A stretch of DNA of 63,128 bases, the filler included, from Sphacelaria rigidula (Eukaryota): the NCBI GenBank assembly GCA_964200075.2. It is 7 parts of 7 records of this genome, joined end to end, with 100 filler letters (N's around TTAATTAATTAA, not from the genome) between each part and the next. Parts side by side here need not be neighbours in the genome. Positions count along the whole stretch, not along the records: positions 36,133 to 45,064 come from CAXNAA020009717.1; 6 more parts are not named here. One strand, 5' to 3'. This document shows positions 9,034-61,170 of the stretch, piece by piece; the first letter of the stretch is position 1, and every line of letters begins with the position of its first letter. A program made the position numbers and the translations under genes. Under the pieces are notes generated by a model. That model searched no databases. It saw nothing but the letters and a program-made list of their open reading frames with translations, and was not told the origin of the DNA.

Positions 9034-9200
9034 GTACTCATTTGTTGCTTGCCTTAGTCATTTGACCATTGACCACGCATCCCTTTCGAGACGGAGCACC
9101 AGAGACAGCCACGTCTTATACATTGCCTCATTGGTGTCTCACCAGACGGAGCAGGGGGGGGGGCGTACTCATTTGTTGCTTGCCTTAGCCATTTGAACAC
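9034..9200 (-). repeat. Two short 3'-end copies of the C-tailed LINE
   Basis: Reverse complement of gctccgtctcgaaagggatgcgtggtcaatggtcaaatgactaaggcaagcaacaaatgagtac at 9034-9100. A second copy at ~9154-9200 has a G10 run (C-tail on the minus strand). Confidence 0.85.
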
Positions 9201-10035: not shown

Positions 10036-10074
10036 AGTTCGATACATTGATGAACGTTTGGCGAGGGAACCCAT

Positions 10075-14129: not shown

Positions 14130-14840
14130 AACACAGAAGCCCAACAGTATTTTCAGAGCTTTTACAACCGGAGAGTTGGTAGCTATCGAGATGAACTTCA
14201 TGAACCGCATTTAGCAGTCCCGACGGCCAATAGAAGTGTACTGCGTACACAACACAGAAGTCCAACAGTGTTTTTGGAGCTTTGTTGAACCGAAATTAGA
14301 AGTCATGGGGATGAACTTCATCAACCGCATCCAGCAGTCCCAACGGCGGGCGGGTATGTGCTTTGTACAGTGTAGGAGCGGAGAGACTGTTGCTCCGGTG
14401 CGCAGTACACTTTTCCCCCACAACCACCGCCGGCCCTTTTCCTACATCAAATGCGTTGTCGTCAAACAAACAGCATTCTGTCACACAAAAAGTAGCTTGC
14501 GAAGAACCAAGTAGTCAAGAGTTTTCCCCGTCAAGAATACACCCCAGCACCACAGCGCTAACACATACACTTTACAGTACGACTACTACTGTCTGTAGTG
14601 TTGGAGAGTTGGTAGCCATGGAGATGAACTTCATCAACCTCATTCACCAGTCCCGACGACGGGCGGGGAGGGTAGAAGTGTACTGCGTACAGTGTAGGAG
14701 CGAAGAGGCTGTTGCTCCGGTACGCAGTACACTTTTGCCCTACAACCACGCCAACACATACACTTTGCAGTGCGACGAGTACTGTCTGTAGTGTTGGGGA
14801 GTTGGTAGCCATGGAGATGAACTTCATCAACCGCAATTTG
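14130..14840. repeat. Degenerate tandem array of ~110-190-bp units
   Basis: gagttggtagccatggagatgaacttcatcaaccgcat...cagtcccgacg...gaagtgtactgcgtaca recurs at ~14170, 14290, 14605 and 14798. Confidence 0.75.
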
Positions 14841-14849
14841 TGAATTCAT

Positions 14850-15305
14850 CCTTCGTGCGGGATCATCCCACCGGACGTTGGTCTTTGGAATTTCCTGTCT
14901 TTCTCGGCCGTCAAAGCCCCCGACCGCCTATTTATTTCGTCGAGTGCTGTTGCCGCGGACACGGTGATTGGTGTTCCGCCCTACGCGTCGAGAGCTCTTA
15001 CTTTAGGCGTAGAATGCTCCTTGGTCTCGGCTGTGTACCTCATCTGGGGGAGTGCTCACTACGTCACACAGTTCCGTTTGCGGGGGAGGTGGTTCAGGTA
15101 CGATTGCACTAGTGGGGGTAGCACTACCGCGTCCGCCTTGTTCGATAGCCAATGGCACACCGGGAGACAGTTTGTACGTGTACGTCAAGACGAATCTACA
15201 AGTAGTGATCGGGGATAGTACAGGGGAACCTAGCGATAACTTGCCGGGCAACGACTCCGGCCCAAGCTCTGCCTTCCTGCGGACCCTTGCGAACGTGGAA
15301 CGACG
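14850..15305 (+). pseudogene. Second copy of the Helitron C-terminal USP-like His-box region
   Basis: LTLGVECSLVSAVYLIWGSAHYVTQFRLRGRWFRYDCTSGGSTTASALFDSQWHTG is clearly paralogous to 37271-37765(-). Confidence 0.8.
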
Positions 15306-15723
15306 TCGTGTGGCTATATATATTCACGCGTGCGAGACGCGAGAGCTTCAGTGGTTGTATACTTTATATATTTCAACTGTTTCTTCCCGTGTCTCTACTT
15401 GTTTGCCGATTATGCTCCTTTTCCATCATTACAAAGGAAAAGAAAGTTGAAAGCACGATGCAAAGCACAGCAATCCATCGTTTATTCAGCAGAAGATGTT
15501 CGAAATAAATCCTCTTCTTGCCCAATCAATTTCCCATATTGGGCAAAAAGGGGATTTGTTTCGGACAGCTTCTGCTGTATAAATCTCGTACACTGGCAGA
15601 TCTGGAATTTGTACAGCAGAAGCTCTGCTCGAAATAAATCCCCACTTCACCCGCCAATTCATCCAGAAATTGGGCGAAAAAAGAACTTATCGCGAACAGC
15701 CTCAGCTATGCAAGGCCCACATA

Positions 15724-18066: not shown

Positions 18067-18285
18067 TGTTGTTTACTCACGTTCTCACGCTTTCCACGGT
18101 GGATATCATACACTACGAAGAAAAAACTCAACGCGTCGGGAATGGAACCCCTGTTCTCTCCACCCTAATGACGCCAGTGCTCCGTCTCGAAAGGGATGCG
18201 TGGTCAATGGTCAAATGACTAAGGCAAGCAACAAATGAGTACGCTAATGACGCCAGTCGGACAATTACACCACCGGGGCGCGGCA
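18067..18285 (-). mobile_element. 5' part of a tRNA-derived SINE (family of 51213-51540), interrupted by a LINE 3'-end insertion
   Basis: Reverse complement matches 51213-51348 (A-box TGGTGTAAT, B-box GGTTCCATTCC) once 18179-18257 is removed. Confidence 0.8.
18179..18243 (+). mobile_element. 65-bp 5'-truncated LINE 3'-end insertion with a 14-bp TSD
   Basis: TSD ctaatgacgccagt at 18165-18178 and 18244-18257. The insert matches the LINE 3' end at ~35840-35902. Confidence 0.9.
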
Positions 18286-19099: not shown

Positions 19100-19900
19100 A
19101 TTACACAACGGCGTAGCGAAAGGCACAGTTGCTAATCTCCCCCTTCTTCCGATCCAAGACGTCGCCCATAATCTTCCATGGTCAGCATTCGCTGTCCAAG
19201 GCGAACGATTCGTCCGGCAAGCAGGAGTCGCCGTCTCCACATTGCCGTGTCGATGGTCTCGCAATCCGTCCTCTCGAGAGCTTTCATGTAGGGAATGGCA
19301 TTATGCGTTGATCGTGCGGAATTGTCGGATACACCCCGGTAGCAGTCGGTGGTGCGTCGCAAGTAGTTTACCGTAGTCGATTTTTTTTTTGACGGTCACG
19401 TTGAGGAGCCATAGAGTAGGACTTGCACCAGTTCGGCGTGTAGCCTCTGTCCTTGTGCACTCGATCGAACTTCCTGTACCATCACCACGCGGGTCGGATT
19501 CGGCGTCCGATCTCGTGGACTGTCCCGGCCACTCCGCTGATGGACGTTCCTATAATGGGTACACCAATTTCCCCGTCTGGTCATACCGTTTCCCCGCTGC
19601 CTTGATGTCTACTGTACCCGCTTTGTGGTGCGGTACAGGCATGCACATGATCTCCGCGTGCTTCTCCGACACGGGCAGTCCATCTGCTTCGCACTGTCGG
19701 GCAACGGTTGCCATCATCTTGGCAAGCAACCTTGCCTGTGACCCTGGCACAACCCCACCATCATTGGCGTGTAACCTAGCCCACAGCTGCTGGCAAAATG
19801 CATTTTGTCTCTCCTACTCTCCAGCAAGCATCTCTTCGTACTATGACCTACCCCGAACTGAATGGCTAACTTCAAGCGTGAATCTTCGCTTGTGGGTATG
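19100..19900 (-). mobile_element. RTE-like non-LTR retrotransposon C-terminal fragment
   Basis: LAKMMATVARQCEADGLPVSEKHAEIMC...GKRYDQTGKLVY and YMKALERTDCETIDTAMWRRRLLLAGRIVRL are typical post-RT RTE segments. Confidence 0.75.
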
Positions 19901-21006: not shown

Positions 21007-22736
21007 GGGACTTTGGGTGTCAGAGGTTGGAGTGGTGGGATACGGGAGAGGAGTTCGAGTGGGATCACAAGCGCTCCATGAGAATGGGCTTCACCGGTGC
21101 GTTTGTGGTGACTCCCATGTCGTTCACATGGAACCTGTTCGCCGAGTGGTGGGCACCTGGCACCACTTGGAAAGCTATCTGCAAGAAGCAGCTTGTGGCC
21201 GCGAGTGTTACATTGCCGATGGTGAGTGTTTAGATTCCTGTTTGAGGCAGTTGAGGGGGTGTGTGTGAAAAGAAACGGTGGAGTGGTTGTATTGCAAGCT
21301 TGACATTTTCACGATTTGAGGTGTTTCTCGTTTGCCACTCTTGCGGGGGGGTGACGACGAGCCAAGTTGCATGGTGGCTTTCCATCGCTTTTTACCCCCG
21401 TTTTTCTTGTGATTGCTGCTGAGTGTGCGTGTGTGTGTTATCGTCCCGTCTATTCTGCACGCCGGTCTATATCCCTAGATGTTTCCATTCTCTTGTGTAT
21501 ATATTTTCAGTACATGCATCCGCCCTGTTTATGTCCCCAGTCTGGCCCGCTGGTGCGAGTGCTCCGTCCCGAAAGGGACGCGCGGTCAATGGTCAAACGA
21601 CAAATGAGTACGCCCTCCCCCCCCCCCCCCCTAGTCCGACGAAACCCGGCGTGCGCCGTCCCGGCTTTGCAGGGATGCGAGGTGAATGAGTGCACCTTCC
21701 CCCGCTTGCCGAGTTTTTTCTTGAGCGAGTTTTCCCCTTTATTTGCTCACCTGAGTATGATGCGCCTATCTTTTTCACGACAGATGAATTCGTCGCAGAT
21801 CAGTGCATGAGAGACAATCAAAGCAATCGATTCAGCCATGGATCGGTCACTCAGCGTGTTGGTTTATGGTATATACGTGCTTGTACGCTTTTCGTAATTT
21901 CACCCCACTTTGTCTCCCTGCCATCTCATGCCTTTGAAATCTACCGCGCACGCAACCTTTTTTGGCCCTCGCCTTCCTCCCCTTATTTTTTATTTTACCT
22001 CTCATTTTTGTCTGTCTATCTGTCTCCCCCCCGCGGCCCTCAATCCCAGCTCTACGCCCAATTCTTCAGCCTGACAATGCTAGAGGAGGGCAAGACGCTG
22101 CAAGACTTCCACCAGCGCGTGGAGCGGGACTGCTTGCCCACTTTCATGAGGGGCCTCTGCTACTGGCCCTTGGTCGGCGTCGTAAACTTCAAGTTTGTGC
22201 CCGTCGTGAACCGTCCGGGCGTCAGCAGCATCGCAGGCCTGTTCTGGAGTATTTACCTGTCCCACCGCGCCAACAGCGAAATGGAGGATGATGATATGGT
22301 TGAAGTGGTCGAGACGCTCGGTCGTGCGACCGTCGTTCGTCCCTTGGAGGAATCTGCTCGGCCGTCATCGGCTGCGGCGGCGGCTATTGCTCCAGCGATG
22401 GCGGCGGAACCCTTGAGCCCCGCAGACGTGGGAAACGAACCTTCTCCGTCTTCCTCGGATATTGCTGTTCTTGCCGGTGGCCTCGCGGGTGGTAGCGTTG
22501 CCGGGTCAGATGCGAGAAGAGGAAAGGAGGCGCGAGCGGCGGGGGTGGTGGGCGGAGTAACGGCGACCGACCGCAGGGGGGTCGTTGACGTTCGAGGGGC
22601 CAATGGAGTAGTTGGAGCGGTGGCGACAGCAGAGGCAGAAGCAGCAGCAAAAGCAGGGGAGGCAGGTGAAACGACCCCTGGTCGGACGAGGAGGAAGAGG
22701 AAGGTGGTGCGGAGGACTACGGTGGTGTCCTACTGA
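21007..22736 (+). CDS. Mpv17/PMP22 family membrane protein, last two exons (~21007-21221 and 22050-22736)
   Basis: GDFGCQ...DHKRSMRMGFTGAFVVTPMSFTWNLFAEWWAPG...KKQL, then donor GTGAGT at 21222, acceptor CAG ending at 22049, then LYAQFFSLTMLEEGK...CLPTFMRGLCYWPLVGVVNFKFVPVVNR...FWSIYLS. The splice is phase-0 consistent. The 5' exon start is uncertain because it lies next to a poorly assembled homopolymer region. Confidence 0.88.
21560..21631 (+). repeat. LINE 3'-end copy with C-tail, inside the Mpv17 intron
   Basis: gctccgtcccgaaagggacgcgcggtcaatggtcaaacgacaaatgagtacg followed by a C-run. Confidence 0.85.
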
Positions 22737-33205: not shown

Positions 33206-35930
33206 AAACGCGGGCAGGAGCAAATATTATAGAGGGATAGGAGCAGTTGGTCAAGAACACAGTAAGTGAAGCCATGGGGAAGAACCTCATCGTATGTTAC
33301 AACGCAGTGAAATGGTGGGATGAGGAAGTAAAAAAGGCTATAGGAGTAAGAAGGAGGTCCACGCGAGACGCATATCGAGTAAAACTACGGCAGGATGGGA
33401 GGAGTACACTAAAGCTCAAAAGGAAATAAAGATGGTACAGCAGAAAAAAAAGAGAGTATGAAAAGATGTGGTGAACCCCCCCCCGAAGATTTCGATGGCG
33501 CGATGACACACATGTAGGCAGGTATAAAAGGGATAACGAGAAACCGGGCAGGAGAGATGGACGAGGGGATAGCCACACTCCGGGCACACAACGGCAAAAT
33601 GGTCAGCACTTCGGAGGGGGAGAGAGAACTGCTAGTCGAGCACTACCGTAAACTAGGAACACCAAAAACAAACACGTAGTTCGACATGAAATTCGAAAAA
33701 GAAATTAACGCGTGGGCAGGGGCATATATTGAGACGTCAAAACGGGAGGATAGAGACTTGAAAGAATTACAGGGAGAGTTTACCTGGGATGGAGTGAATA
33801 ACTGCATGGCTAAACTCAAGAACAGAAAGGCAGAAGAAGCAGACGAAGTAGTGAATGAATTTCCAAAGTATGGGGGGGAGCGAATGATTACTATCATGAT
33901 TATGCTGTTCGACTGAATCTGGGAAAACGAGCACACATCCAAGAGATGGGGAGAAGAAGTAGTCGTCAACCTTTTAAAGAAAGAAGACAAGGTTCACCCA
34001 GGGAATTATAGAGGGATAACGCTACTGAGCACGGTAGGGAAAGTATTCGGTAATATTCTGAACGATAGAGTAGGAACGATGCTAGAAAAAGAAGAGAAAA
34101 TCAGCGAGGGGCAAGCAGAAATTAGACCGTGTCGTAAATGCGTAGACCAAGTGTACACACTAGGTAAGATTATTCAGGGTAGGCAGGACACCGGGCTGAC
34201 AACGTACTGTTTCTTTCTGGACGTGCAAAAGGCTTATGACACAGTGTGGAGAAATGAGTAGTGGAAAAAGTTGTGAGGAACTGGGATCAGAGGAAATATG
34301 CGGAAAATGGCGAAGAAGATGGCAGAATGTGCCAAAAGTGCTATTATGCTAGACGAGGAAATATCGAAATTTCTTGATATTTTACAAGGAGTTGCACAAG
34401 GATGTACGTGATCACCCACTCTGCTCAAGGTATTCATTAATGACTTGATAATAGCAATAGAATCGGCAAAGCAAGGGATCAAGCTGGGTAAATATATGGT
34501 GTCAGGATTGACGTTCGCGGATGATTTTGTGGGGACTTCAGGAACACCAGAAGCACTGCAGAAATAGGTACACAAGGCACTAGAACACACTGGGCAATGG
34601 GGAGTGACAGCGAACGTTAACAAACCCGCGGTACTTTTCTGTAACGAAGAAAGGAAAATCTGGCAGAGTTCAAATGAAAGTCGGGAGAAGAGGGATTACC
34701 GATCGTCGACCAGTATGAACACCTTGGCGTAGAAATCGAAAAGCACTGTTCTTGGTATGCACACAAAACAAAGTAATAGAAAAGGGTAAGGCCCAGATAG
34801 GCAGGATGGACGTGATCCTCATAGACTCGCACGTAGACACTGGGATCAAGATATTGTATGTATCCTGATGAACGTGATTGTACCATAGCTGGAATATGCA
34901 GGAGAAGTATGGGAGGGGAACGTGAGGTTGGTGGAGAAGTTGAAAACAGTACACATGGCAGCAGCTAAGAAGACACTTGGATGCTCGAATACGACAAGTA
35001 ATACAGCTTTGAGAGCAGAGTTGTGAATGTACTCACTTAAAACAAACAGCGAGGCGAGAAATTGCGATGACAATATAGCGTAAAGGGCATGCAGGGAACG
35101 AGATCGCCAGCTATAATTGAAAGGGCTGTTTTAAAAAAATTACGAAAGGGCGGGCTGGAATAAGATGGGGTGAAGAAGTCGAGAAGCTATGGAAGGAGAT
35201 AGAAGGAGACCAAGACGAAATCCTGTGCATAGATGAAGGCGCGGGGGCCGAGACAAAAGTAAGAGACATGCTAAAAATCAGGGGGAAAGGAGCGCTCAGA
35301 CGCAAAGTAGACGAGGAAGAACACCTGAAGACGTGCGTACTCATTTGTTGCTTGCCTTAGTCGTTTGACCATTGACCATGTAAGGGGTATTGAGAGGGGA
35401 TAGGGATGAAAAGATATTTGCATGGCCCAATGGACGCGGCGAAAAGCTTACAGCTGCGATTCCGGGTGGGGGGCCTGGACCTGCCGGAAAGAAGAAAGAT
35501 ATTTACCAATCGTCGAGAAGAGGAGAAACTAGATGCACACAACTGTCCCTGTGGCAAAGGAATAGAGAGCGCAAGTCATACAGTGGCAGAATGTGATTTA
35601 TTTAAGGGGCAACGAGATGGGCTAAAGGAAAAAATGGGGGATGTGAACGAAGGTGGCATAAAATCGCTTGATGTATTAGACAATAAGAAAAAACGATGAT
35701 TATATTAGGAGATAGATGGCGGCCACAGACGGCGAAACAGGGCGGGGATAAGATATGTGAAAGATTTTGTAGAATGTATCGAAAAAACAAAATGAACGCG
35801 TGAATGTTGGAGGTGTCTCTATAAAGAGTAGGGACGGTGCTGGGTCTCGAAAGGGATGCGTGGTCAATGTTTAAACGACTAAGACAAGCACCAAATGAGT
35901 ACACCCCCCCCTCCCCCCCCGCGCCCCCCT
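33206..35930 (+). mobile_element. 5'-truncated LINE (RT plus C-terminal Cys/His motif), decayed, ending in an oligo(C) tail
   Basis: YRGITLLSTVGKVF, FFLDVQKAYDTVWR, QGVAQGC*SPTL, LTFADDFV, CPCGKGIESASHTVAEC. The 3' end reads ...aagacaagcaccaaatgagtacaCCCCCCCCtCCCCCCCC. A minus-strand copy of its own 3' end is nested at 35335-35378. Confidence 0.92.
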
Positions 35931-36132: not shown

Positions 36133-37080
36133 TCAACAATACAATACATCTTTTTCTCCAGAAGCCACGAGTCTATCAACACACGATCCGTACGGCTCCT
36201 GTCCTAATCAAGCCCCGAATAAATGCCACTTCGCGTCAATGTGCTTAGTATGACCTGAGCTAAGAGGGTTGTCGGCCAGGGCCTTAGCCCCCTCGTCGTC
36301 CTCATAAAGAACAATATCATACTCCGCCTTTCGCCCCAGCACAACCCTTAGTCGTAGAAAAGAGAGGACCGACCTGACAACATACACTCCTTAGCCCCTT
36401 CGGCCTTAACCACGTACTCGGCCTCGGTGGTTGATACGGTCACGTAGTGTTGCGTTCGGCTAGTACTCGACACTGCTACCCCTCCATACATCACCGCTAC
36501 CCCTGAAACTGGTCGCCTGTCTGTCTCTTTCTTCGCCTTGTCAGCATCGCAGTACACTAAAAGCACATTTTCTCCTGAACTTCACGTCAGGCCGCACGTT
36601 TTAGTCATATTCAGGTAAGCTGAGAATTTCAACACTCCTCGCCAATGTCTTTCGAATGAGTCACGGGATCGTCGGGCCAGGTACCGGGCTGCATTGGCTA
36701 TATCAGGCCTGGTCACCCCAGCAAACCACATCACCCCCCTACTGCACTCCGGTATGGCCTATCCATCACCGTGTCTCCCTGCATGACCGGTCCTAAATCT
36801 GCTGATACTGAGGAAAGAATGTCAGAAAAATCCGTGACTTCAAATCGTTTCAACAGGGTGTCGATAAAGGTCGTCTGGTTCATGTACACACGATACCTCT
36901 TTTTCAGTTCCTTTCCATGGTACACCCCATGTACCACTGGACTCCACCTAGATGTTTTGCTGGGGATCTCTTGTTGGGGATGTTACACACTTTTTCGACT
37001 CTTTTTGTTTCTCCCCCGATGAAGATGTCGTCTACATGTGCCACTATTATGACACATAGATTGCCCTGTGTCCAAGGCGC
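36133..37080 (-). mobile_element. Ty1/Copia RT-RNase H remnant
   Basis: IVAHVDDIFIGG, YMNQTTFIDTLLKRF, PYRSAVGG, VYCDADKA...DRRPVSG...STTEAEY. A possible 3' LTR starts (TGTTG) near 36181. Confidence 0.88.
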
Positions 37081-37881
37081 TTCCAATTTCAATTTATTTC
37101 GGTGTTTGTGACGGGCCGATTGGATTTCGGCGGTGAAACCGGAGTGGTCTCGGCTGGGCCCGTGTACTGTATAATGAAGGTTTACCGCACGCACTTGGGA
37201 TATGGTGATGTGTCGTTGCACTGAAGCATAAAGTTTTATTGAATCATAAGTTGTGTTCGTGTCATCGCGGTCATCGCGGTCGCGCTACATTCGCAATGGC
37301 CCGCAGCAATCCGGCGCTGAGACGCGCGCCGTTCCTTGGCAAATTCTTTCCAGGTAGTCCCGCACCAGTCCCAGCCACTACCATCCTTGTTTTCAAGTAC
37401 ACATATAGGATTTGCTTCCCGGTATGCCACAGACTATCGAAGGAGGCCGACGCGGTAGTGCTACCCCCATGCGGGCAATCGTATTTGAGCCACCTTCCTT
37501 GCAAACGGAACTGCGTGATGTAGTGGGCGCCGCCTCTGATGAAATACACAACCGAAACCAGGGAGTACTCTGCGCCTAAAGTGATAGTCGGGGATACGTC
37601 CGGGGTGACGCCAGCTTGTTTGTACACGTAAATAGCGCTCGACGAAAAGAAGAGTTGGTCGGGGGCGTCGTTGGACCATGGGAAAAATTCCAAAACCAAA
37701 AGTCGGAAGGGACGATCCAGTACGAAGGACAAACTCCCGTCCCTGGGGAAGAGAAATGGAGACAAGAACCTTCAGCGAACAAACCATCTAGAGCTACCTG
37801 CAGGGTCCTGGGAATACCGTGAGGAACCATGAAGATGGCGGGGTCACGCCAGGTGGCATATTGTTCGGGCGTTACTGGCAC

Positions 37882-38230
37882 GAGGCGATTCACACGCGGC
37901 CATTTGGCTACACCCCAAAATGCCTCCGGAGGGATGCGCGACCCTCCAGGGGGAAAACAAGCCTCCGGAGGCCTTCCATCCCTCTGGAAGAAGCCAAACT
38001 CGACCGACCCGGAGGGCCGCGCACCCCTCCGGAGGAAGTTTGGGTATGCGCGGCCCTCCAGAGGCAAGAATAAGCCTCCGGAGGCGTTCAACCCCTCTGG
38101 AGGAAACCAAAACATTTCCTCTGGAGGGCTGCGCACCCCTCCGGAGGCGTTTCATTCTTCTGGAGGCACGAAAAGTGTACCCACCTGGAGGAGTTCTGGA
38201 GGTAGCCAAATGATCGCGTGTGTGCGCCTC
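37882..38230. mobile_element. ~350-bp MITE inserted in the USP-like domain
   Basis: TIR cacacgcg(gc/at)catttggctac at 37891-37911 and 38202-38222, extendable to GAGGCG...CGCCTC. The interior is made of repeated cctccggagg palindromes; no clean TSD. Confidence 0.75.
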
Positions 38231-40113
38231 TATCGGGCAAGTTACCATTCGCGTCCCAAACCCAGCGATTCACTTGTTTGAATTAATAGTTGTTGGAGCC
38301 GTTGTTGGTGTGTTTCCGGCCAGCTCGCTGGCGAGTGTGCCTCGTGTCGCTTGCAAACGGCTTCGAAGACTCTGGCGGTGTCACCCATGGCATCTCCGCC
38401 ACCCGGTAGGCCTCCGTTCGTCATGACGAAGTCACACGATCCCGCTAGTTGCACCTGGTAATGATGGTGCACAAGTGCGATAAGGCAAGGGCTGAGAGGG
38501 TTGCAGAAAATGGAAAGCAGGGTCAAGGTGCGGAGGGTAGATGAATGCATGCCGCGTTTACAAGACACGAAATGCAAAAGTCTCACCAGGATTTCGACGG
38601 GCAGGGCGCCGGTGTGCATGTTTTCGCAAACAGCATGGACGGCAGAGAAGAACACTTTTGCCGAAGGTGCAGACGATTATTCGGGTAGTAGAGGTTGACC
38701 GTCGTAGGCAGCAAGAGTACAGGCGATCGCGGCATTGTGGAAGCAGTTCATTTGAGAATTGAGTACCAAAAAAGCAGGCGGGGAGACGGGAGCATTGCTC
38801 TCGTCGGTAGGAGGTGCAGATCGTTCATGATTGGCACCAATATCGGAGCCACCACTGCTGACGGTGTCATCGGTGTCATCATCGTCTTGAAGGTGACCAC
38901 CATTTCGAGGGTGATATGTACGGCCCGATGTCCTAACCATGACCAGAATAAACTCGGAAGGGTTTGCAAGGAACGCAGAGAGAGTGGCGTCTCCGAGGCG
39001 GTCAGGGAAGTCCAAGGTGGCCGGTTCGATCATGAACAAGTGCTCTACAGCAGTCGCCCGAGATAAAGTCACGTAAGCTGCACGTTCATCAATGGTTCTA
39101 TCGACAAGCTGCTTCATGCGTAGTAGCAAGGTTTGTATGGTTTCTCCCTAGTTGAATGGGGGAGGAAGTAGACCGGAAACGGGTGTAGGGGTCAAAGTCA
39201 GAAAGAAGGTCGGAAATAGGAAAAAGGCAATAAAATGGACCGGAAGTGGGAGGTTTTTTTTTTTTCTGTGAGAATCTCACCTGAGCCCGATAGACAGACG
39301 AAAGGTTTCCAGGCAGGAGGGGCAACTGGGCACGTGTGAAAGAGTAAATTCTTTCGTGCAGTTCGTTGACGTCGAAGTTCCGGCTCTCGACACTGACGGC
39401 TATTTCACCACGTCTGAAAGGGGCGATGTGGAGACCGCCGTCGAAGGCTGACTGAAGGAAGATGACGACCCGAGTGGGACGATATACCAGATGTACCACT
39501 CGTTAACCCGCTGACGTGCTGTTGAGGGCGACCTCGCGTTCATCTAGATTGATGCTGACGATCGTGCCTGAAAGGAAGAGTACAGAGGGTTCTTGAAGCG
39601 AAGCAAGAGGAGTGGGACTAGAGGGTATTCAAAATTGACATGTTGGATAGTGTAAACGATGAGTACTGCAGTAACAAATGCATAACAGTAGCCTCACCGT
39701 CCGAATTGTTGCATACCCCCACGGCGAGAAGTTGTCCGGCAGGTTTGTTCAAGACGATGGGCAGCCCGATGCCAAGGCACACAATTCTTGGTAGATGTGC
39801 TGTTTTGGTCTCCTCCAACTTTTGCACGCCTTCTCGCAAGCCATGAGGCCATCCGGCGGTGGGGGAATGCGGCTGGAAGAAGGGAGTGACCGATCAACGA
39901 CACGAGGTAACGTGCAGAGGAGCAGTAACGTCAAAAAGGAATTTAAGCGAGACGACAACAAATTGGCAGTTGAAGCGGAAAATACCTTATTTTGATATTT
40001 GAACCCCGAACCGGTGAAGATACCGAGCGCCGTCGTGAGCTACAGTACCGTGCCTCTAGCCTCGCAGAGAGAGCGAGTAGTGGGTAGGGTCAAGGCTTGG
40101 GTACCCTGACATA

Positions 40114-41117
40114 CCGTAAAAGTGCGAGAGATGGCACCGGTCGGGGAGCTGGCACAGGGGTGCGCATAAAAGGTGGAAGTGGCATGATTTAATTGAATTT
40201 TTGCACCGGGGTCGGTAAGATCGCACCGGGGGGCGATTGTACCGACCCGGAACCCAACTTTGAGGGTTCCGCGGGTGGAGCAGGGCCGCTCATGAGCTGC
40301 TGTATGTACACACATGGGTACCTTTCACGTGTGCAGTGTTGCCAGCATGTTGTCGGGGCAACCCTACTCTGCGTATTGTCACGGTTCAAGCAGGATGATG
40401 TCTGTTGTTTCCATGTAATCCGCATGGAAAATCGCTCATTCCGTCCGAACAAAGTACGGTACACACCCAAATGAAGTAGCCGAAGTAGGAGCAGCAGTAG
40501 CAGCATTGCCACTGGGCTGTGAGGAGGTGGTTTGGGCACCTGCGTCCTCTGACATGGTTGGGGTTGTGTGTGTGCTCTGCGGTACGACACAAAACAAATC
40601 GGCGGGACCTTGGCGGGAGATCTTCCTTTTTTCATCTATTTCGCCGCCTTCTCTAGTTCGGGTTGTTGTGCGCGGTGTACAGCCAGCGGTGTAGATTTGT
40701 CTGGTGTGTGCTTCCTGTTTCTTCCCGTTATTACATCACACCTTTATCTGCTCGTACAACGGTACCGATGAGTTGCTGTAACGCGGTATGGAGTGCGGTG
40801 ATGGTGCGAGAGATGGCACCGAGGTGCCGGCTTTCAGCACTGCTGTAGCATGATCAGTATGTACGTAGGCCACGGTTTGCATTTGTTTGGGCATCGCACC
40901 GGTCGGAGAGATGGCACCCGATTGCGTTGAATAATCCAGAAATAATCATCTAATAGAATTTTGGCACCGGAGTCGGGGAGATGGCACCAGTCGGGGAGAT
41001 GGCACCAGTCGGGGAGATGGCACCAGTCGGGGAGATGGCACTGGGGTGCGAAAAAAATCCGAGAAAAAACCTTTGAAAAATCGATCGCACCCGGTGCCAT
41101 TTCTCGCACTTTTACGG
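40114..41117. mobile_element. 1.0-kb non-autonomous Tc1/mariner (pogo-like) element in a Helitron intron
   Basis: TA|CCGTAAAAGTGCGAGA(G/A)ATGGCACCGG TIRs with 1 mismatch and a TA TSD. Internal copies of the gagatggcacc motif include a 4x18-bp tandem at 40971-41041. Confidence 0.9.
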
Positions 41118-44100
41118 TATACGGGGAAACGGGGTTGACGTTGGATGGAACACGGTGGGACGCGAAGTACCAGGAAAGAAGAAGGAAGGGCGGAAAACAC
41201 ATGAAGTATATTGGTTGTTGGTGTACCTTATTCCGAAAAGTGATGGTTTGAGCCATCCAACCATTTTTCATTGCGAGTTTGCCAGGTGTCCCGTCCTGCA
41301 GATGAACAGGACTGTTGATCACCCGAGCATTGATCCGTGCCAAGTCCTCGGTTATGCATTCTCATAGCACCCGGTCCATGATGGGAGCATATCTGGGAGA
41401 GAATATGTTAGTTTCATCTAGCACCACTGATGTATTAGAAGCCCAAACGTTGGAGCGTCCGATACGTTCCGTACTCGAGAGGTTGCTCAGGAGCGTCGTG
41501 TTTGATGCGCCATAAGAGATCGACATGGCGCCCACGGGATCCAGCTTGGGCTCAAGAGAAACGGCGATCAAAACTACGAAGAAGGAGATGGGGGCGTGAT
41601 TAGGGAGCAGGGATAGGTTAGGGTTTCGTCTTTGATAGTGAGAACATCGATGTGGGTTGCGAGGTGTCTGGATATTTACGCGCCTGATTCATGTCGCCGA
41701 GGGTGATGCACATGAAACCGGCGAACGGAAGGCTGGCAGCGGAGGGTCTGACAGAGGCAGCCGCTTTTTCCATACACCCTTGGAGCCTGCAGCTAATCAT
41801 CGAGATTTCTTCCATGGCTATCGCACCGTCTTTGATCTGCGCCCATCTCTGCGCTTTCTTGTCCGACAAGCTGTCTTGACCTTCCTTGCTGTCCACCATT
41901 CCGTTGTTGTGGTTTCCAGCGTCGCACACGGAGTGCACGGTTGTTTCTCCTACGCTTGCTGCCTGCTTCCCCTGGAAAGCGACCGTCAACATACCTCCAG
42001 GTTGTACCACACGTTGAAGTGCCGGGCATTCGATCAAACTAACAATGGCCTGTAGGTAACATACCGCCAGGTAGCGAAACAAAACACCGTAACGCGAGGG
42101 AGTATGTGATCCTGGCTGGCCATGTGAAACAAAATGACGTGATTTAGGGTGACTGTGGCCTTTGTCAAGAAGTAAACCATTCGCACTACAGGTTTCCGCG
42201 CAGATCTCGAAACGCAAGAGGCTCGGTTTTCGTTGTTTGGCCAAAAAATGAGAATGAAAAAATACGTACCAAAACAGAATTATTTTAAAGCTGAAGTGTA
42301 CACAGCAGTCCTCCACACAAGGTTGCTAGGCGGTGGCTTACCCGCAGTACAACACTTTTCACACTCCCGGCGCCCCCTGAAATGTGGAGACGGCAGGCGT
42401 TCGGGTTTGGAGAACCGTCCCTCGCGAACCACGCGTTAGCGAAGATGAAGAAGGCCAGCCGCTGCTTCCTGTTGAGGCCATACACCTCGGCTGTGCAGAC
42501 GACTGCGTCATGCCGGTGAGCCGAAGCCCGGCCGACGTCGGTTGCAGCAACTCGTGCGTTGGTCGCTGTCCTCCTATTCAGTTAGAGCTTGGCCGCGTCC
42601 GTCAACCCTGATTGTGACTTATTGCGAAGATGACGTATGTACGGCTCCATAGCGGCTTCGTCGTATGATGAGGTGGGACAAACAGGCGGCGTCTCCTCGG
42701 GTTCTGCGGTGTATGCTTTGACGTCGGACAGTCCGAGCTTGGCCGCAAATTCTTTTTTGAAGATGTTGGCTTCTTTCTCGCCCTTCCACAAACACACCTG
42801 GCCCAAATTGGCGTTGACTTCGTCGGGTGTGCAGCCACTTAACAAGGTCGCCGATGGTAAGCCTGGGGTATTGGTAGGGCTGGGGATATCGCAGGAGCTG
42901 AAGCCTGCAGCAAGCAAGTTGTCGACTGCATCGTTGGAACACAGTGGGCGTTTTTGGCGGGCGGCAAGACATTGATGCCGCAGGTGTAGTTCTCGTCGCA
43001 GTCCAAGTTAAAGATGTCCCCGTTGCTCGTCGGTGGAACCGCCGTCGTCGCTTGTTCGCGCCGCGAGAAGCTCGGCTTGCCGCCACGTCAAATTTTCATC
43101 AGCGTCCCGGCGTTGTGTGAGCAAGGCGCGGATGTTCTATCTCATCGTGATGGAGCTAGGGTGCCATCCATTGGAGTCCTGCGTACGCTGAAAAACATCG
43201 GCTCACGTTTTGTCGTCCGAAATGCGAAGGTCACCGATGGCGAATATGGGCTTGAACATAAAAATCAGCAGCAGCGCGTGTCGCTGCTGTTGAGTGTCCT
43301 GCTTGGGAATGTCTCATAAAAGTTTTATCGATGTGGATCGTTTGCGCGTAACCTGAGCGAATACCAACAGCGAGAGAAAGCTATTGTAAGTAAGCGATTA
43401 TCACTGCTAGAGGAAATACTATTTTGGAACAACATATAGAGGTCTATTTTTCAATGTACAGCAAGTACACTTACCTGTCATTTGTTGAGCTTGGGAACAC
43501 CGACGAAATCGAATCGATCGGACGAAGTGCAACCCTTTTTATGGGAAGCTGTTGTAAGGTCACCGGTGTCGTCGCAGCAATTTCCGACATAATCTCCGTC
43601 AGGTTCGCCGTTTTCGGAGTTGTCGCCGTCGGAGTTGATGCTGTCGGAGTCGGCCCGGGCAGGCGTTTTTGACGGGGAACATGGTTCGACTCGAACCAGA
43701 CGCATCCACACCACGTCGTACATGCTGTGGTAAGGGTGGCTAGTGTCGTCTCGATGGCATCGCCTCAGGTAGAGATGGTGCATGCAGGTGGCGGCGCTGA
43801 TGACGGCATGGGCTCCGGTGTCGACGCCGTTGTCATCATCGTCGTCGTAGTCGTCGGGTTGGGGTTCGTCATCGTCGGCGTTTCCAGAAGACGCAAGCCT
43901 TGCGGCAGCGTCGTCAAAGGCTGCTGATGCTTCGTTGAAGATGAGTCACATCGGACAGTTTATTTCGTCCGTCGAGCACTTGTGTTCAGTGTACCCTAGT
44001 ACCTTGCTCGCGGCGGCAGGCGCACCGAGGCTCAGGTGAGCAACCGTTTTGAAGGAACACGATCTTACCAATGCAGCTGCAACGGCTACCGCTGGGGCTC

Positions 44101-45164
44101 TGTTGCCCCGTCTTTGATTCGCTCCACCACGGGAGCCAAGAGGTTGAGGGGTGCGTCCATGGTCGTCTCGGTCTTCGTGGTGTAATTGAGGATATCAAAT
44201 ATGGCTCCTCGCGCATCACTGTCTCAAAGCAATATTTTGATGTCCATATTACTACGAGTGCAATACTGGATGATGGGGTAGTAGCTGTTGAACATTGGTT
44301 GCTCCCGTCAGGGGCGAAATTTTGTTTTCCGCTCGAAACTTCCTCAGCATTGCTGTCAAATTGCTGCCTCATATTTCGTTCTTGTTCCTCGGCGGATTTG
44401 GCGGCAGAAACAGCTGCGGCACACTGTCAAGCAGGGTACAGGGCACTTCCAACCATGCTGTCGCTGTCAAGACGTATCATTCGGAAACCGCGCTGCACGG
44501 AAGTCCGATCGACAAGCGGTTTTCCACCCCCATCGAAACCAAATCTGATCAGAAGCGAAGGGAGGGTCGAAACTAAAGGGCGCCAATGGAATGGCACCAT
44601 TAGAGTTGATACAAATGAGATGCGTGAAGTAGATGCAGCACAACATCGATCATCAGAGAGGTTTAAATACCGGCATGAATTGGCGTGGACATGTTTGTGG
44701 CAGGTGAACGTGCAGGTATGCGTGCTTGCCGTCGAGGTGATGTGTGCCGGATTGGCGTGGGAGTCGGCAAGGTGTTTGTCTTGGGCGACGACGTCAGGTT
44801 CGATTCCGGGCGGAGGGTAGCATGCAGATGGTGGTGGAACGGCGACGCACGCTGTAGCCGGTCGCTCCAGGGGGCTGTTAGAAGGTGGAAGGTGATCCGA
44901 CTTTGCACCTGTCGGAGACGCCACTTGGGAGAAGATAGTACGGCTTAAGAACCTGGCAAGTTATTGGTAGCTGTCGGGGGTCTTATCCACCGTCTCTCTC
45001 AAGCTCGAAAAATCTTGATATCCGACGACCCGAAGAAGGAGGAGTCATCCTACGATAGGGGGGGNNNNNNNNNNNNNNNNNNNNNNNNNNNNNNNNNNNN
45101 NNNNNNNNTTAATTAATTAANNNNNNNNNNNNNNNNNNNNNNNNNNNNNNNNNNNNNNNNNNNN

Positions 45165-45404
45165 GTGTACTAGGAGATGGATGGTGGCCACAGACGGCGA
45201 AACAGGACGGGGATAAGATATGTAGAAGGCTCTTGTGTGATGTATGGAAGAAACGTTCTGAGCTACGGAAGAAGCGTCATGAGCGCCAGAATGTTGGAGA
45301 TGTCTCTATTAGGAGTAGGAGCGGTGCTCCGTCTCGAAAGGGATGCGTGGTAAATGGTAGAACGACTAATGCAGCAACAAATGAGTACGCCATCCCACCC
45401 CCCT
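45165..45404 (+). mobile_element. 3' portion of the C-tailed LINE
   Basis: Colinear with 35700-35920 (ggccacagacggcgaaacagg...gtctcgaaagggatgcgtgg...aatgagtacgccatcccaccccc). Confidence 0.9.
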
Positions 45405-45939
45405 GCTTCAAGGAGATTTGTGTCAAATTGTTGAGGCATTATCCAGAGGCCGGGGTTCCGATCTCTGAGCAGCGTACATACCGCTATTTTTATGCTAAGC
45501 ATTGCCCGTTGCTTCCTGTTTGGGATTCTTGGTTCTTCGAAAGTATCATGCACTTTGCGACGTGAAGTAATAAGCGCAACTTGCGGTGTTGGTGTTTTCG
45601 GGTGCACGAGGCAAACCTTGACCGTGGTCTGCGAGAGTCAGGGCACCCGTCCCCGCCACTTTCACCTGGCCTCCCTTGTCCGCGTGTGACTGCTGCAAAC
45701 GGCAATTCCGACATTTTTGCTCGACGAAACTCGGCGGAAACCTCGACGTATTTTTACTCGCATTGTAGGTCCCACGTTATACAGCTAACCCTTCACTCAT
45801 CTCCCCACCCCCTACCCCCTCTCTCTATATATTCCATGATTGTTGCAAGTCCTCATGCAGATATCTTGAGTTTTTCAACCCCTCGCTCTCCCCCCCTCCT
45901 CTGGCACGCCTCCTCCTACCCCATCGCTAACCCCTACAG

Positions 45940-48900
45940 GAACGCGAACACGCCTTTTGGATGGACTTTGAGAAAGGACGCGCCGTCTGCGCCCCGGTTC
46001 CTCCACCCACTCCCACCTCACCCACATCAGGCGCTTCTCGTTCCCGGGCAGTCGCGCGCGAGCGTGCGGGCGTGGTTCTCCTGAACCGTTACTGGGGCGC
46101 TCTGGAACCGCCGATTGTTCCCGGAACAGATGACACCACCGTCAGCGGTGGCCGTGGGGTCAGCAGGCCCCTTCCCTGCCGCCCGCCCCGGCCGGAGTCT
46201 TACCGCGAAGACACCGCCGCGGCGCGCGGAATATGTGCGTGCAACAGGAGGACACAACCCCGCAGCGGCGACGGTGGTGGTAATTGCGGGGACGGGGTTA
46301 AGGGAGACGGGGACGGGGCTGGGAGGGTTGGTGTTGGACCGGACGGGATTTGTCACGAGCTTGCGGCAGCGGCCGAGTCGGGTTGGGATTTCAGTTCTCG
46401 GTGGGGGGACGGCGGCCGGCGTGATGCTCTCGCTGCGAGCGCTGCGAGCGCTGCGAGTTATTTGGTAGTTTTGGAGGAGATGGAGGGTGGCATGGGGGCA
46501 ACGGGCGTTGCCGGGGGAGGTGGCGAGAGTGATGTAGCTGCGGGTGGTCGTATCGGTAATGAATCTGGCTGTCAGAGGGAGGGGAGTGAGGAAGGAAACC
46601 GTGGTAACGGAAGTGTTGGGGCAGGGTCGTCGGAGGACGAGTCCTTTTGCCTGTGCGACACCGCGACGACAGCCGTCGTGCCCGCCGACTTGAACGCGTT
46701 CATGCATCGGGCAGAGCTAAATATCGCGCGGCTGCACCACGCACACCACGTGGCTTCTGTCAACGCGGCCTCTTGTTGTGATGTCTCGGACGAACCCGAT
46801 CAAGATCCGCCGCCTGGTTCAGCGGCCGTGGTGGGTGCGCACGCAGTAACGACAGCACGGCACGATGGACACGATGATCCCGAGGCGAGAACCAGGGAAA
46901 ACACGAACAGCAGCAGTCGCGGGCGTCGTTCTTCTTCCTCTGCCTCGACAACGACCAACGCCACCCCTCCGCCGCCACCGGCGCTGTTGACGCTAGATGA
47001 AATCCAGCGCAGGTATCTCTCGCGCGACCGCCGCGTCTACGGGTCGTCGTCCGGATTTGTCACACTCGACTGCTTGCCGCCGGAGATCGTCGGTGGCGTC
47101 GATGCTGCCGCTGCCTCGGGAGGCGTTGATGGCGGAGGCAACGGAGGCAACGGTTCGACCGCCATGCGGCAAGATCGAACTTATAGTGACGACTGCGAAT
47201 CTTCTTCCGAGGCCGGCGTGGGTGTGACCGCGGGTGGTTTTGGACTGGGATCGGACGTGCGTGCTGTGGTGCGATCACGGGGGGCGTTGTGCCAGAAGGC
47301 GATGTTGCTTCTGGCGGCGGCGCGGGCGCGGGCGAAGGCCATCGAACAGACCATGTGGGATGATGACCAAGCGCTATGGAGGGACCTACTTCTGCCGACG
47401 GGTCAGTTCGCGTATGCTCTCTTTCCTACTTTCTGCCGTACTCTTTCTCTCTCTCTCTATATATATATACATGCCCATCGTTTTGATTTCAATTTTTCAA
47501 AGCAACGAGCAACGAAATAAATACCTTCTGTACAACATATACGGGCGAATGAGGTCCAACGCTGTGAGTTGCGCGCTCGGCCCTGCTCCTCTTTTTTTGT
47601 CGCGCTTCGAACTGCTCCCCCTACTCGGGCTGAGTCCGTGGTCTCAAGGGATCAGCCCATCTCTTCCCGGTACATGCTTCGCATTGTGGTCTCAAGGGTT
47701 GGGTCAGAACTCCTGCACCGCGTCAACTCATGTCAAATAAACTCAGTCGACTATTAATACTTTGCTGCGCCGCAGATTTCTCGTGACTTGAGAGAATGTG
47801 CGTGTGCTTCCCTTCTCTGCCGCAGGAATTTCTGGACGGTTTGCTGCTGCCGAGCGACGGTTAATTCCTTGTTTATTGCCACTGAATTCGGCAAAGTCTG
47901 ATACGGTGCTCGATTTGACCTTCTGGTTGGTACTTTGCCGACGGATTGAGATCACTTTTTGAACCGATCGCACAACTTTTGAACTGACAAGATAGTGACC
48001 GGTGGTCGTATGTGTCCATGAGTTCCACTGAATATCCGGATTGACCAAATTCGCTCGGATTTCTTGCGAGCATCCATCCGTGAGTTTGTTATCTGCAGGA
48101 TATCGAAACACCGAAAAATCCAGGCCAGCTGCTTCTGCTTCAACGTATTTAGACAACTACTCGAGAATTGAAAACGACCTGCATCATGGATAGCAATACC
48201 TCAAAACGACTAGTGAAGCTGGAGTTGGGCGTACTCAATTGTTGCTTGCCTTCGTCGTTCGACCATTGACCACGCATTCCTTTCGAGACGGAGCAAGGCG
48301 GGGGGGTGCCTGGGTCGACAAGAAAGAATAATAGAAACAGCTGTTTACGGAGGTGGTATTCACCGTATCGTTTTTGCCCACGGTAGACCAATGGCGACAA
48401 TCCCGCTGCATGTTTCCGATCGAAAAAAGCTACGCTTTGGCATGGTCTCAACAGCGTCGAGCTGGCGTTGACCCATAAAAATAACATCTAGGAAGAGTGG
48501 AAATAATTACCCGTTTACTCCTTAGTGGGCACATAAGTAGTGCTCCCCGCCTTCTCCCAACATGCTCATCGGGGGAGCGGGGTGGTATATTACTGCATTG
48601 GCCTGTGACACACTGGTACCAACAGTGATTCCCCTGAATGTGCATGAGGCATCACCAAATCCCCTACATCCTACCCTGCTGATTCACGACAACCCTCCAC
48701 TCCGGGGACGAAATCACTTTTTGGCTGCCCCTCAAGCATGCTCGGGCGATGTTCTCCGCCATTTCGGCCCGTGACGGGCGAATGGCGATGCATCTGGACA
48801 CGAAAAGGTACCACAAAGACCCACACATCCTACCCTATGTATGTTTTACGTCCACACGCCTTCCACTCCGGGGGTATATTTCCTGCCATCCCCTCTTCGG

Positions 48901-56403: not shown

Positions 56404-59400
56404 CTAGCCCTGACCCGCGAGCACAGGTGGCGCACGTCGACCCGACTCGAACAGCTCTGAGCCGATCTCCTGGCTCCCGCTAACATCCATCAGTAACGAA
56501 CTCGCCTGCTCCAACCGGCACTCTCCTCCCCTCACCGTGTCCACTGCGTACGAGTACAGTATCCCTTCACTTGTAACGACCAACAATATTTCCCCCTCCC
56601 CTTCCTCCTCCTCATCCCCGCCCACTCCACTCCCCACCCCCCTTGCGCTGTCGTCACCGTTTCTATTGTCATATACATTCCTCACACTCCGGCCGCCCGC
56701 CCCCCCACGCGGACCCCAATCTCCGACGTCACCCGCTGGAATCAACGCGCAGATACTGCGACCGGCACTTCCTCGCAGTCGGACGCTTGCGAAGGATCGG
56801 TTGCAATCGACGTAGTCCTGCACGCTCTTGGTAACACGATTCGGCAGCAGGCCGACCACAGACCGGAGGCCGCTCGCCAGCCCACCCCCACTGGTCTCTC
56901 TGCTGTGGTTGTGGTTACCCCCCCAACTGCTACTGGTTCCATCTGCTGTGAGACCTCCCTGTCTGACAGAGTTTTGGTCTCCGCTGTTACCACCACCATT
57001 GCCGCCGCCGCTTTGTTCAAATTCTACTCCCTGTCTGATTCCTTTGTCGGCTCCGGTGCCGCCAGCACTACCACCACTAGCGATATTGAGTTGCTGCTGC
57101 TGCCCTGCGCTGTTTGCGCCAGTCCTCACTCTAGATCGCCCCCGCTCTCTACTCCCGCCGGCGGCACCTCGCTCACCGGCGTTTGCGGAGACGTCGAATA
57201 TGTGTATCGTGCGGTTCGAGCTCGACACGGCGAGGCGGGTGGCGGCGGCATTGAACGACATGGAATAGATTCCGCAGCTCGTGGTACCTCTTCGAAGCGT
57301 GTACGTCTGTAGGTGTATTGTGAGGGCGATGCGGGGTACGGGATTATTGACAGGTGTCAACACAGAAAATCACGGGGGCGCGGGTACAGGCGACAATGAG
57401 CAGACATTCATCCAGGACCAGGGCGCGATAAATCCTTGCACAAAAAGGAGGAAGAGCAGATCGTGGCACTGTTAATGTCAACTCCACGGATCGTTGTCTC
57501 CGTTGCCACAAAAAACGTGAGAGAGTCGCAGAAACAATAGCCATGAAAAGCGATGAAAAATGACTTGCTCGAGGTGGACGAGGATATCTTCAAATTTACG
57601 GTTCATTGCTGGTCAACGCTACAACACAGTGACATTGAAAGGCCGTGCGTGGGGTAGAATAGACTCATTATTTGCATGCATTACCTGTCAACCCGTATGT
57701 ATATCATGGATCTTGACGAGATAAATAAACCGCCACGACTTCCATCAGAATTTTTTCATAGCTCACTACTTTGTCGCATTAAAGCTCCTCCATCTATCTT
57801 CAACACGACCTCGAAAAGCGGGGGAATGGACACCCCACCTACAACACAGCACAGCATTGAGCGGGTCAAACTGGGAAGCGCCTACGGTATCTGTGCCTTT
57901 CGTCGATTGTTACCTTCACCGCGGCCGGCACCGTGAATATCCGGATGACCGTCCCCTGCTCCGACGCTGTGGCAAGGAGCTTCCCATCGCGACTAAAGCT
58001 AACCGCGACCACCCTGCTGCGGCAGGCTACCACCTTGTTCATAACCTTCAGGTCTAGCGCATCGTACAAGATTACCTGACGCGATAAAAGTCATCAGAAC
58101 AAAATGCACAGGAGAGCGGTTTGGCCTAACGGTCACCGCCTCAATAGTCAACAAAACTCCCGTATACCCATGACACGCTAACGCGTGTATGGTTCGGGGA
58201 CCCCCTGACGCCCCCCCTCCGTCACTGAAGAAGGATTCGAAAGACGAAAATCTATGGTCAAGCGCGAAGTCGCTGACACATGAAACAGACAGCATTTTTT
58301 TCGCGAGCGTGCCAAGCACCGCCAACATCAAGTCGTAGTTGCGGAAATCAAATGAAGCGCAAAGCAAGAAGAATGGGGTAGGGGGGGGGGGGTCACTGCG
58401 CGAGCACGATCAAGAAAAAATGGAGCAAAGGAAAGATGAAAATCGAACGGAAAGAAGTAACTCATGCCACGAGCAGCATACAAAGGCCAAGCCACATAAG
58501 CGCACCCCTGCGGGAACTAAACGAGAGAGTTCATGGCAAACCACGGGTTGGTCGGGAAAACGAAACGGAACATGAATGTTCAGATTACAAGCCTATTTTC
58601 CAGCCTTTTTTTCGCTGGCACCCCCCCCCCCACAACCCAGCTCGCCTCCAACCACCCCGTCAATCGGGCGCACTCGAGGCATCACACCATACCCCGCCCT
58701 CTCCTCTGGCGTGCACTCCGGCCAGTCAGGGAGTCTAAAGTACACACGGCTTCAGCTCGGCTCAGCGGCACGAAAAATAAAGTAATATTAAAAGTGAAGC
58801 AAGCTGAGAAGGGGTATTCAGGGTCGGGGCCCAGCATGGCGAAACAAAAACAAGAGTAAAAGTCGCACGGAAAGCTGAAAAAAAAAACGTGCGAGGCACG
58901 TACACTTCTTCACACCCTGGACAATCGATTATATGCTCAAAAAATGTACTGTTTACAGTATGGAACATTTTGTCTGTTGCAACGGGCGCGATAGGCGCAA
59001 TAGGCGATACTGTGCACAGTACAATTTTTGACGGCGTATTCTTTTGTCATTATCCAGGGTGTGCACTTCTTTTGGTGACAGACTCGAGCGCAATCAAGGC
59101 ATAAGAATGCCTACACCACATTTTCAGCACAAACCGTGCAGGAGTTGTCAAACGAGGCCGCCGAGGAGTTTTGAGTGTGCACGGATACTGGCCCCTTGCA
59201 ATACCTAACGATAGAAGGCAAAGACACCCTTTGTATACTCCACTGCACCCCAAACATATATTCAGCACCAAGTATACGCAAGGCATATATGACAGCTACA
59301 ACGCTCTTGAACGTCAAGAAAAAAATCATTTGATGAATGGAGCTGTAGCTACCTGCCTCTGCTTATTTCCTGGTTTGGTGAACGAACGACAGTCAACTAC

Positions 59401-61065: not shown

Positions 61066-61170
61066 CTGTGCAGTGGGGGTCCGGGGTTGGGGGCGGGGCG
61101 GGGAGGGGGACTCATTCGATGTTTGCGTTAGTTGTTTGACCTTTGACCACGCATCCCTTGCGAGACGGGG
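60182..61170. repeat. Three LINE 3'-end copies in ATG18 introns: 60182-60305(-), 60613-60706(+), 61075-61170(-)
   Basis: Each carries the (c)gtctcgNaagggatgc...ggtcaa...atgagt(ac) core plus a C-rich tail. Confidence 0.85.

Follow-up and report, generated by a model that had tools for sequence, protein, structure and literature searches.

A decayed Pif1-like helicase gene of Sphacelaria rigidula with a putative USP-fold C-terminal extension

Does a helicase-bearing mobile element of Sphacelaria rigidula carry a deubiquitinase as part of its own protein? The question is raised by a locus on the minus strand of a stretch of DNA from this species (NCBI GenBank assembly GCA_964200075.2; 63,128 nucleotides, filler included), the whole of which we call the window and along which all positions are counted. 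The original prediction read the locus as a Helitron RepHel protein apparently fused to a USP/C19-like deubiquitinase domain, and our analysis finds every motif that it quoted on the minus strand, in open reading frames (ORFs) 38677-39147, 38242-38676 and 37271-37771. The window is eukaryotic, with many transposon remnants and with GT-AG introns, and positions 37274-43394 (minus strand) are probably a decayed copy of an intron-bearing gene from a multi-copy, mobile-element-like family, whose ancestor encoded a Pif1-like helicase with a divergent USP-fold C-terminus. The gene is laid out as an unannotated N-terminal region of about 300 residues, the Pif1-like helicase, several introns and a C-terminal extension (Table 1). 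In the intact ancestor an acidic linker would have joined the C-terminus of the helicase to a USP-fold (peptidase C19-like) domain that had diverged strongly. At about 330 residues this domain would have been as large as a USP core usually is, and would have had a Cys box, a thumb carrying a Q-x-D-like box, a CPxC finger resembling a zinc ribbon, and the His and Asp in its palm.

Helicase, linker and Cys box

The two halves of the gene are tied together by a stop-to-stop ORF of 156 amino acids (38677-39147, minus strand), in which helicase motif VI, a linker (Asp-rich in our reading of the ORF translation) and a Cys-box-like motif follow one another in one frame. The continuity of helicase and Cys box is shown directly in this copy, and in this physical sense the predicted fusion is correct. 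The helicase tail and linker align with relative P0074 (E=1e-25) and also with P0002, a protein of another genome that has both the Q-x-D-like box and the His box downstream of this tail and linker.

The Cys box itself is distinctive within the window. In the six-frame translation (126,256 residues, 4,495 of them Cys) this site holds the single occurrence of the pattern N-x4-C-[FYW]-x-N-[SA]-x-[LIVM], and the same is true when only the part beginning at the Cys is sought. The residues of the box stand in USP-like register (Asn at -5, Cys, an aromatic residue at +1 and Asn at +3).

Eight helicase relatives, all of which contain the Pfam PIF1 domain (PF05970), map to two parts of the window, 43394 down to 41104 and 39147-38899. 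The window ORF itself matches PIF1 at E=0.0025, below the cut-off, and all eight PDB matches of relative P0072 are cellular PIF1 proteins; the gene has the Pif1-like 5'-3' helicase required of a Helitron-like element. The N-terminal region that runs into Walker A corresponds to no Pfam family in the relatives. The break in motif V is flanked by apparent splice sites, a donor at 39283 and an acceptor at 39148, and the exon upstream of it (39284-39502) is putative because no relative's gene model covers it. The presumed helicase-gene introns also hold short tandem or dispersed repeats at 40893-41120 and 40128-40243 (minus strand), one frame of which reads as a repeated hexapeptide.

Table 1. Segments of the helicase gene and its USP-like extension, with the inserted element and the second partial copy
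Feature	Positions	Strand	Basis
N-terminal non-helicase region running into Walker A	42342..43394	-	tblastn of relatives P0069-P0076, 40-55% identity
Pif1-like helicase exon, motifs Ia to III	41684..42055	-	58-76% identity to 8 relatives with PF05970 PIF1
Middle part of helicase, one in-frame stop (41362)	41104..41592	-	tblastn high-scoring segment pairs to P0070, P0072, P0074
Putative helicase exon (2B/SH3-like part and start of motif V), ending at GT donor	39284..39502	-	ORF reading
Exon with end of motif V, motif VI, helicase tail, Asp-rich linker and USP-style Cys box (38701-38781)	38701..39147	-	single uninterrupted ORF
Putative thumb-helix piece, frame differing from that of the Cys box, ending at GT donor	38587..38676	-	sequence reading only
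Thumb exon with Q-x-D-like box	38245..38475	-	phmmer: 7 relatives, E 1e-14 to 4e-4, in set of 76 proteins
MITE-like (miniature inverted-repeat transposable element-like) insertion splitting finger-coding region	37891..38222	.	palindrome-rich, bounded by inverted repeats
Finger-region piece with CPxC position	37681..37923	-	family hidden Markov model (no window rows), E=5e-17, model positions 27-112
Palm piece: His box, Asp, C-terminal aromatic motif, tail to stop	37274..37690	-	family hidden Markov model, E=1e-50 (37373-37690)
Second partial copy, last exon only, frameshift near end	14817..15309	+	tblastn, tblastx, family hidden Markov model E=7e-49

Fold and conservation of the C-terminal domain

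The pieces of the extension do not form one open frame, being separated by GT-AG introns, by frame changes near 38690, 38245 and 37684, and by the insertion. The Q-x-D-like box lies at about 38365-38391 within ORF 38242-38676, and the His box is found together with a Tyr-Asp-Cys triplet and the C-terminal aromatic motif in ORF 37271-37771, which has its stop at 37271-37273 (both ORFs on the minus strand). The palm and finger pieces overlap by one base and are joined through a one-base frameshift at 37684; in the finger of this copy the second Cys of the CPxC pair is replaced. The insertion is 332 bp long and present once in the window, and consists of nested palindromes around a CCTCCGGAGG core, with one inverted pair (I3) having 43-nt arms that are 72% complementary and contain an exact 11-nt inverted core. 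The relatives are continuous across the insertion point. The original prediction was right that introns and a MITE-like insertion have to be taken out before the domain can be read. Upstream there is further damage: six in-frame stops fall within segments that align with relatives, the first five in the N-terminal region (43314, 43203, 43137, 43008 and 42582) and the sixth in the middle part of the helicase, and Walker A has a Gly to Val change in a motif that is canonical in all relatives whose alignment reaches it. With these inactivating lesions this copy is dead, a pseudogene, and the locus therefore gives no ground for claiming a function.

The domain belongs to a large family. An exhaustive search of 1.84 billion cluster representatives with the His-box ORF (threshold E<=1e-3) gave 67 matching proteins, 65 of which are true relatives; the other two, P0056 and P0066, were removed as LysM and repeat false positives. 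The family hidden Markov model, built from 63 relatives with no rows from the window, matches the window at 37373-37690 (E=1e-50), 37681-37923 (E=5e-17) and 14850-15185 (E=7e-49), and the domain match is beyond chance. Most rows of the family alignment are decayed gene models, and even so, of the rows covered at each position, 58 of 65 retain the His at the catalytic position and 53 of 61 have an Asp (47 rows) or Asn (6 rows) after it, with Trp before this residue in 52 of 61; the Gln that follows is kept in 61 of 64, and the first and second finger CPxC cysteines in 36 of 38 and in 35 of 43 (alignment A1). The family thus has a His box with its His and, behind a conserved Trp, an Asp or Asn. 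The expectation that Cys, His and Asp would all be conserved holds for the latter two; the Cys box matches none of the 76 stored relatives.

The model match at 14850-15185 belongs to a second partial copy of the last exon, on the plus strand, which is 71% identical to the first in nucleotide sequence. The last exon is under purifying selection; the ratio of nonsynonymous to synonymous substitution rates (dN/dS) between the two window copies is 0.23 over 89 codons. Tandem-like repeats lie just upstream of the second copy, at about 14079-14845.

Is this domain a USP? By sequence alone it is weakly so. UCH is the commonest Pfam match among the family members (5 of 67 at E<=1), with USPL1-type C98 second (2 members), and a search of all PDB sequences with the family profile gives 28 matches at E<=10, all of them USP7 or USP46; the alignments cover the C-terminal aromatic motif as well as the His box, and put the family His and Asp on the H-Y-V and F-D-D positions of the USP7 His box. 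By fold, as judged from predicted models, it is clearly a USP. AlphaFold2 models built with the family alignment for P0016 (mean local confidence, pLDDT, 73; predicted TM-score, pTM, 0.66) and P0006 (pLDDT 82.9, pTM 0.80) gave 184 and 231 Foldseek matches, respectively, to the PDB at E<=1e-3, and the matches listed, with E about 1e-6 and probability 1.00, are all of the USP fold (USP7, USP15, USP18, USP2, USP1, USP30, USP46, Ubp8, Sad1 and PAN2). Both models show the thumb-palm-fingers arrangement, in each case without the Cys-box helix; P0006 begins only beyond the Cys box, and in P0016 residues 1-30 have pLDDT <50. For the rest of the domain the USP fold is supported in relatives by these models.

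The putative domain resembles the USP/UBP peptidases (MEROPS C19; Pfam UCH PF00443; for example USP7) in the order and spacing of its Cys box, Q-x-D, finger CxxC, His box, Asp and aromatic motif as well as in its modelled fold, and differs from them in having only 9-17% identity to the matched structures, in lying below the Pfam cut-off, in being compact, in following a Pif1-like helicase C-terminally, and in that the family's Cys box is seen in the window copy only. In the viral structure library BFVD the top named rows are giant-virus USP or ubiquitin C-terminal hydrolase proteins (several rows are nameless), and polyproteins bearing coronavirus PLpro come lower down. The USP-like proteins of giant viruses (Nucleocytoviricota) are the best viral fold matches (E 5e-7 to 1e-5; query-normalised TM-score, TMq, 0.37-0.48), but with 9-14% identity and no helicase fusion they give no sign of direct kinship.

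The OTU Cys motifs are similar to this Cys box, and OTU and VTD (herpes-tegument-like) proteases are the Helitron deubiquitinases already described (PMC9741609), so that a domain of either type might look USP-like at the motif level only. This identity is rejected on fold and catalytic order, and we regard it as very nearly excluded: OTU or VTD entries are missing from the Foldseek matches listed, the PDB profile search found USP7 and USP46 only, and the residues run Cys, His, Asp in this domain, while a VTD has its Asp ahead of its His (PMC9741609). In its C19-like fold the domain is as originally predicted.

A number of results weigh against a helicase-linked USP, and they concern the sequence, the Cys box and the fusion in turn. 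Pfam finds no UCH match at E<=1 in 15 window ORFs, and the best UCH score among the family members, 19.0 bits, falls short of the gathering cut-off of 23.9. The PDB profile matches are non-significant (best E=0.18), a phmmer search of the PDB with the His-box ORF returned no USP (only chance antibody and ribosomal matches at E>=0.66), and in the fold comparisons the TM-scores are low (TMq 0.27-0.52) and the root-mean-square deviations large. The lack of a Cys-box match among the stored relatives is accompanied by a word-based homologue search with the Cys-box exon that gave no matches, and the putative thumb-helix piece next to it likewise matches none of the 76. The gene models of most relatives begin after the Cys box, at the next exon, and a non-significant alignment of the box with the N-terminus of P0074 (E=1.3) would place an Ala at the Cys position. 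As for the fusion, helicase tail and His box are joined only in P0002, a chimeric gene model that also includes a reverse transcriptase, and it rests on the window copy and one or two relatives because most of the 65 relatives are short, helicase-less models of 59-440 amino acids.

The Cys-box piece alone has no match in the PDB (phmmer) or in Pfam. In an atlas search with it, the only Pfam-bearing clusters among those listed carry UCH/UCH_1 (scores 0.80 and 0.79) and are mostly viral, at scores below the trust level that make them a lead only; a predicted complex of the piece with residues 31-320 of P0016 (score 0.01, with no controls and the alignment unused) speaks neither for nor against. 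In the gene models of P0074 (residues 1-200) and P0001 (residues 1-70), from a related genome, the Q-x-D-like box is immediately preceded by a zinc-finger-like segment that is rich in Cys and has several CxxC pairs, and the two may represent a subfamily whose thumb carries a zinc-finger insertion; in P0074 the stretch before this segment is faintly Cys-box-like and lacks the Cys.

The state of the Cys box in the relatives, together with the presence of the pseudo-USPs PAN2 and Sad1 among the fold matches and the Ala in the weak P0074 alignment, would suit a non-catalytic domain that serves as a ubiquitin-binding or scaffold module. We think this unlikely: PAN2 and Sad1 share the fold and lack the catalytic residues, whereas the family here has held on to its His and Asp/Asn in gene models that are mostly decayed, and the window copy has its Cys in USP-like register. 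Still less probable is it that the USP-like exons come from a host gene, as a fragment that was captured by the element or lies next to it at this one locus, and are not integral to the element family. Such a fragment would account for a domain with introns of its own and for relatives that are mostly stand-alone short gene models, and the HELIANO study regards such domains as gene captures (PMC11417382), but the Cys box lies in the same ORF as motif VI, P0002 has the same helicase tail and linker ahead of the domain in another genome, and the domain family is large, decayed and transposon-like. A recent host capture is also made unlikely by a divergence from host USPs that takes the domain below Pfam detection.

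Affiliation of the element and possible role of the domain

With a decayed helicase gene linked to a putative USP-fold domain as the probable reading, is the element a Helitron? The designation "Helitron RepHel" goes beyond what the locus supports and is unproven, because a Pif1-like helicase is present and no Rep/HUH domain (Helitron_like_N) was found: none in the 12 minus-strand ORFs of 43328-45776, none in the 15 window ORFs or in 81 further long window ORFs, and none among the Pfam domains listed for the eight helicase relatives. The termini of the element (for a Helitron-like element, a 3' hairpin with CTRR or ends of the HLE2 type) are not definable, because the two window copies align over the last exon only, diverging right after the stop codon, and the upstream sequence ends in a run of N (45065-45165) that takes away the 5' side.

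That run leaves room for a true Helitron-like element, probably of the HLE2 type, whose Rep/HUH exons lie upstream beyond the gap or have been lost from a truncated copy. Pfam UCH domains are reported in HLE2 elements (PMC11417382), and in the atlas, where this region gave unnamed clusters only, the nearest Pfam-bearing cluster to the N-terminal 300 residues of P0072 has Helitron_like_N in 25% of its members (score 0.78, too weak to be more than a lead). On the other side, the Rep match is missing from every ORF set searched and from the domains listed for the relatives, none of the PDB matches of P0072 is named as a Helitron transposase, and the UCH domains found with HELIANO are in separate ORFs of vertebrate HLE2 subgroups and not fused to the helicase (PMC11417382). 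An HLE2 affiliation seems to us less likely than not.

The published background limits what is new here. PMC11417382 places Pfam UCH (PF00443) among 20 domains stably carried by Helitron-like elements (its Table S11, row PF00443.33), where it is nearly exclusive to HLE2, over-represented in subgroups c and d, whose elements are chiefly those of lungfish and axolotl, and counted with the domains in ORFs separate from RepHel. Helitron-like elements with a USP-type domain have thus been published before, and the novelty implied by the original prediction, whose list of accessory domains was incomplete, was overstated. In the literature searched, PMC11417382 is the only paper that mentions UCH in such elements, and an in-frame helicase-USP fusion or a USP clade below Pfam detection is not described in them (subscription journals lay outside the search). 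The HLE2 UCH domains are like ours in that a USP-type domain is stably tied to a mobile element bearing a Pif1 helicase, and unlike it in being detected by Pfam and lying in an ORF apart from RepHel, whereas here the putative domain is below Pfam detection and in frame with the helicase, and Rep was not found.

A second parallel comes from the VTD domains. According to PMC9741609, their non-viral homologues are mostly inside Helentron RepHel proteins (121 of them also with OTU domains), those of zebrafish Helitrons cleave ubiquitin and NEDD8 substrates, and the authors suggest that such domains shield proteins required for transposition from degradation. These VTD (C76-like) and OTU domains have in common with ours that a deubiquitinase-type cysteine protease sits within the protein of a helicase-bearing transposon; they are unlike it in their folds and catalytic order, in being accompanied by Rep and AP endonuclease, and in coming from animals (PMC9741609). 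What is added here is a variant on the known deubiquitinase-carrying habit of such elements, in a broken copy.

We tentatively suggest, at somewhat less than even confidence and by analogy with the tested VTD deubiquitinases of Helentrons, that in active copies the domain would be a cysteine deubiquitinase held beside the helicase by the acidic linker, which would be flexible. Acting at the transposition intermediate, the domain would take ubiquitin, or a modifier resembling it, off the element's own protein or off host factors of replication and repair, so that the target proteins would be stabilised and their proteasomal loss prevented. This role we infer only, and that too counts against the reading of the gene as a helicase with a working USP. 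Self-processing of a polyprotein, another use suggested for the domain, seems quite improbable.

Deubiquitinase domains recur on helicase-bearing transposons and in large DNA viruses, and if intact copies of the present family encode an active, helicase-tethered USP, this would support the idea that escape from ubiquitin-dependent degradation or signalling is a recurrent requirement of such elements. In that case there would also be a divergent USP clade that current domain libraries miss, and Pfam-based surveys would under-count it. A more far-reaching version, in which a Pfam-invisible USP clade is an integral in-frame C-terminal domain of a Pif1-helicase mobile lineage that has no Rep or is distant from Helitrons, appears to us rather unlikely. 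If it were true, there would have been three or more independent recruitments of a deubiquitinase by helicase-based elements (OTU, VTD and USP), which would point to a general need to counter host ubiquitination during element replication.

Other features of the window

The remaining sequence contains further transposon remnants. ORFs at 36348-37284 (minus strand) abut the 3' end of the USP-like exon and read like a fragment of a Copia-type polymerase/RNase H, with no Pfam match at E<=1e-3 in 36907-37284. A non-LTR-type reverse transcriptase fragment (RVT_1) lies at 33917-34258 (plus strand), and further fragments of this type, found by tblastn with the reverse transcriptase part of the chimeric P0002, are at 10054-10371 (plus strand) and 19138-19792 (minus strand). 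A 605-amino-acid ORF at 2669-4483 (plus strand) contains a CCHC zinc knuckle.

A repeat of about 70-240 bp recurs at 45168-45403, 35703-35917, 9034-9100, 18177-18244, 48228-48295, 21559-21626 and 60613-61171; several of its copies adjoin runs of N (558 N in total), which suggests that assembly gaps fall in one repeat family. Host-type exons are present for a trehalase with a long Gly/Ala/Ser-rich stretch (45931-47517, plus strand), an Mpv17/PMP22 protein (21690-22733, plus strand) and a PROPPIN (56407-59856, minus strand).

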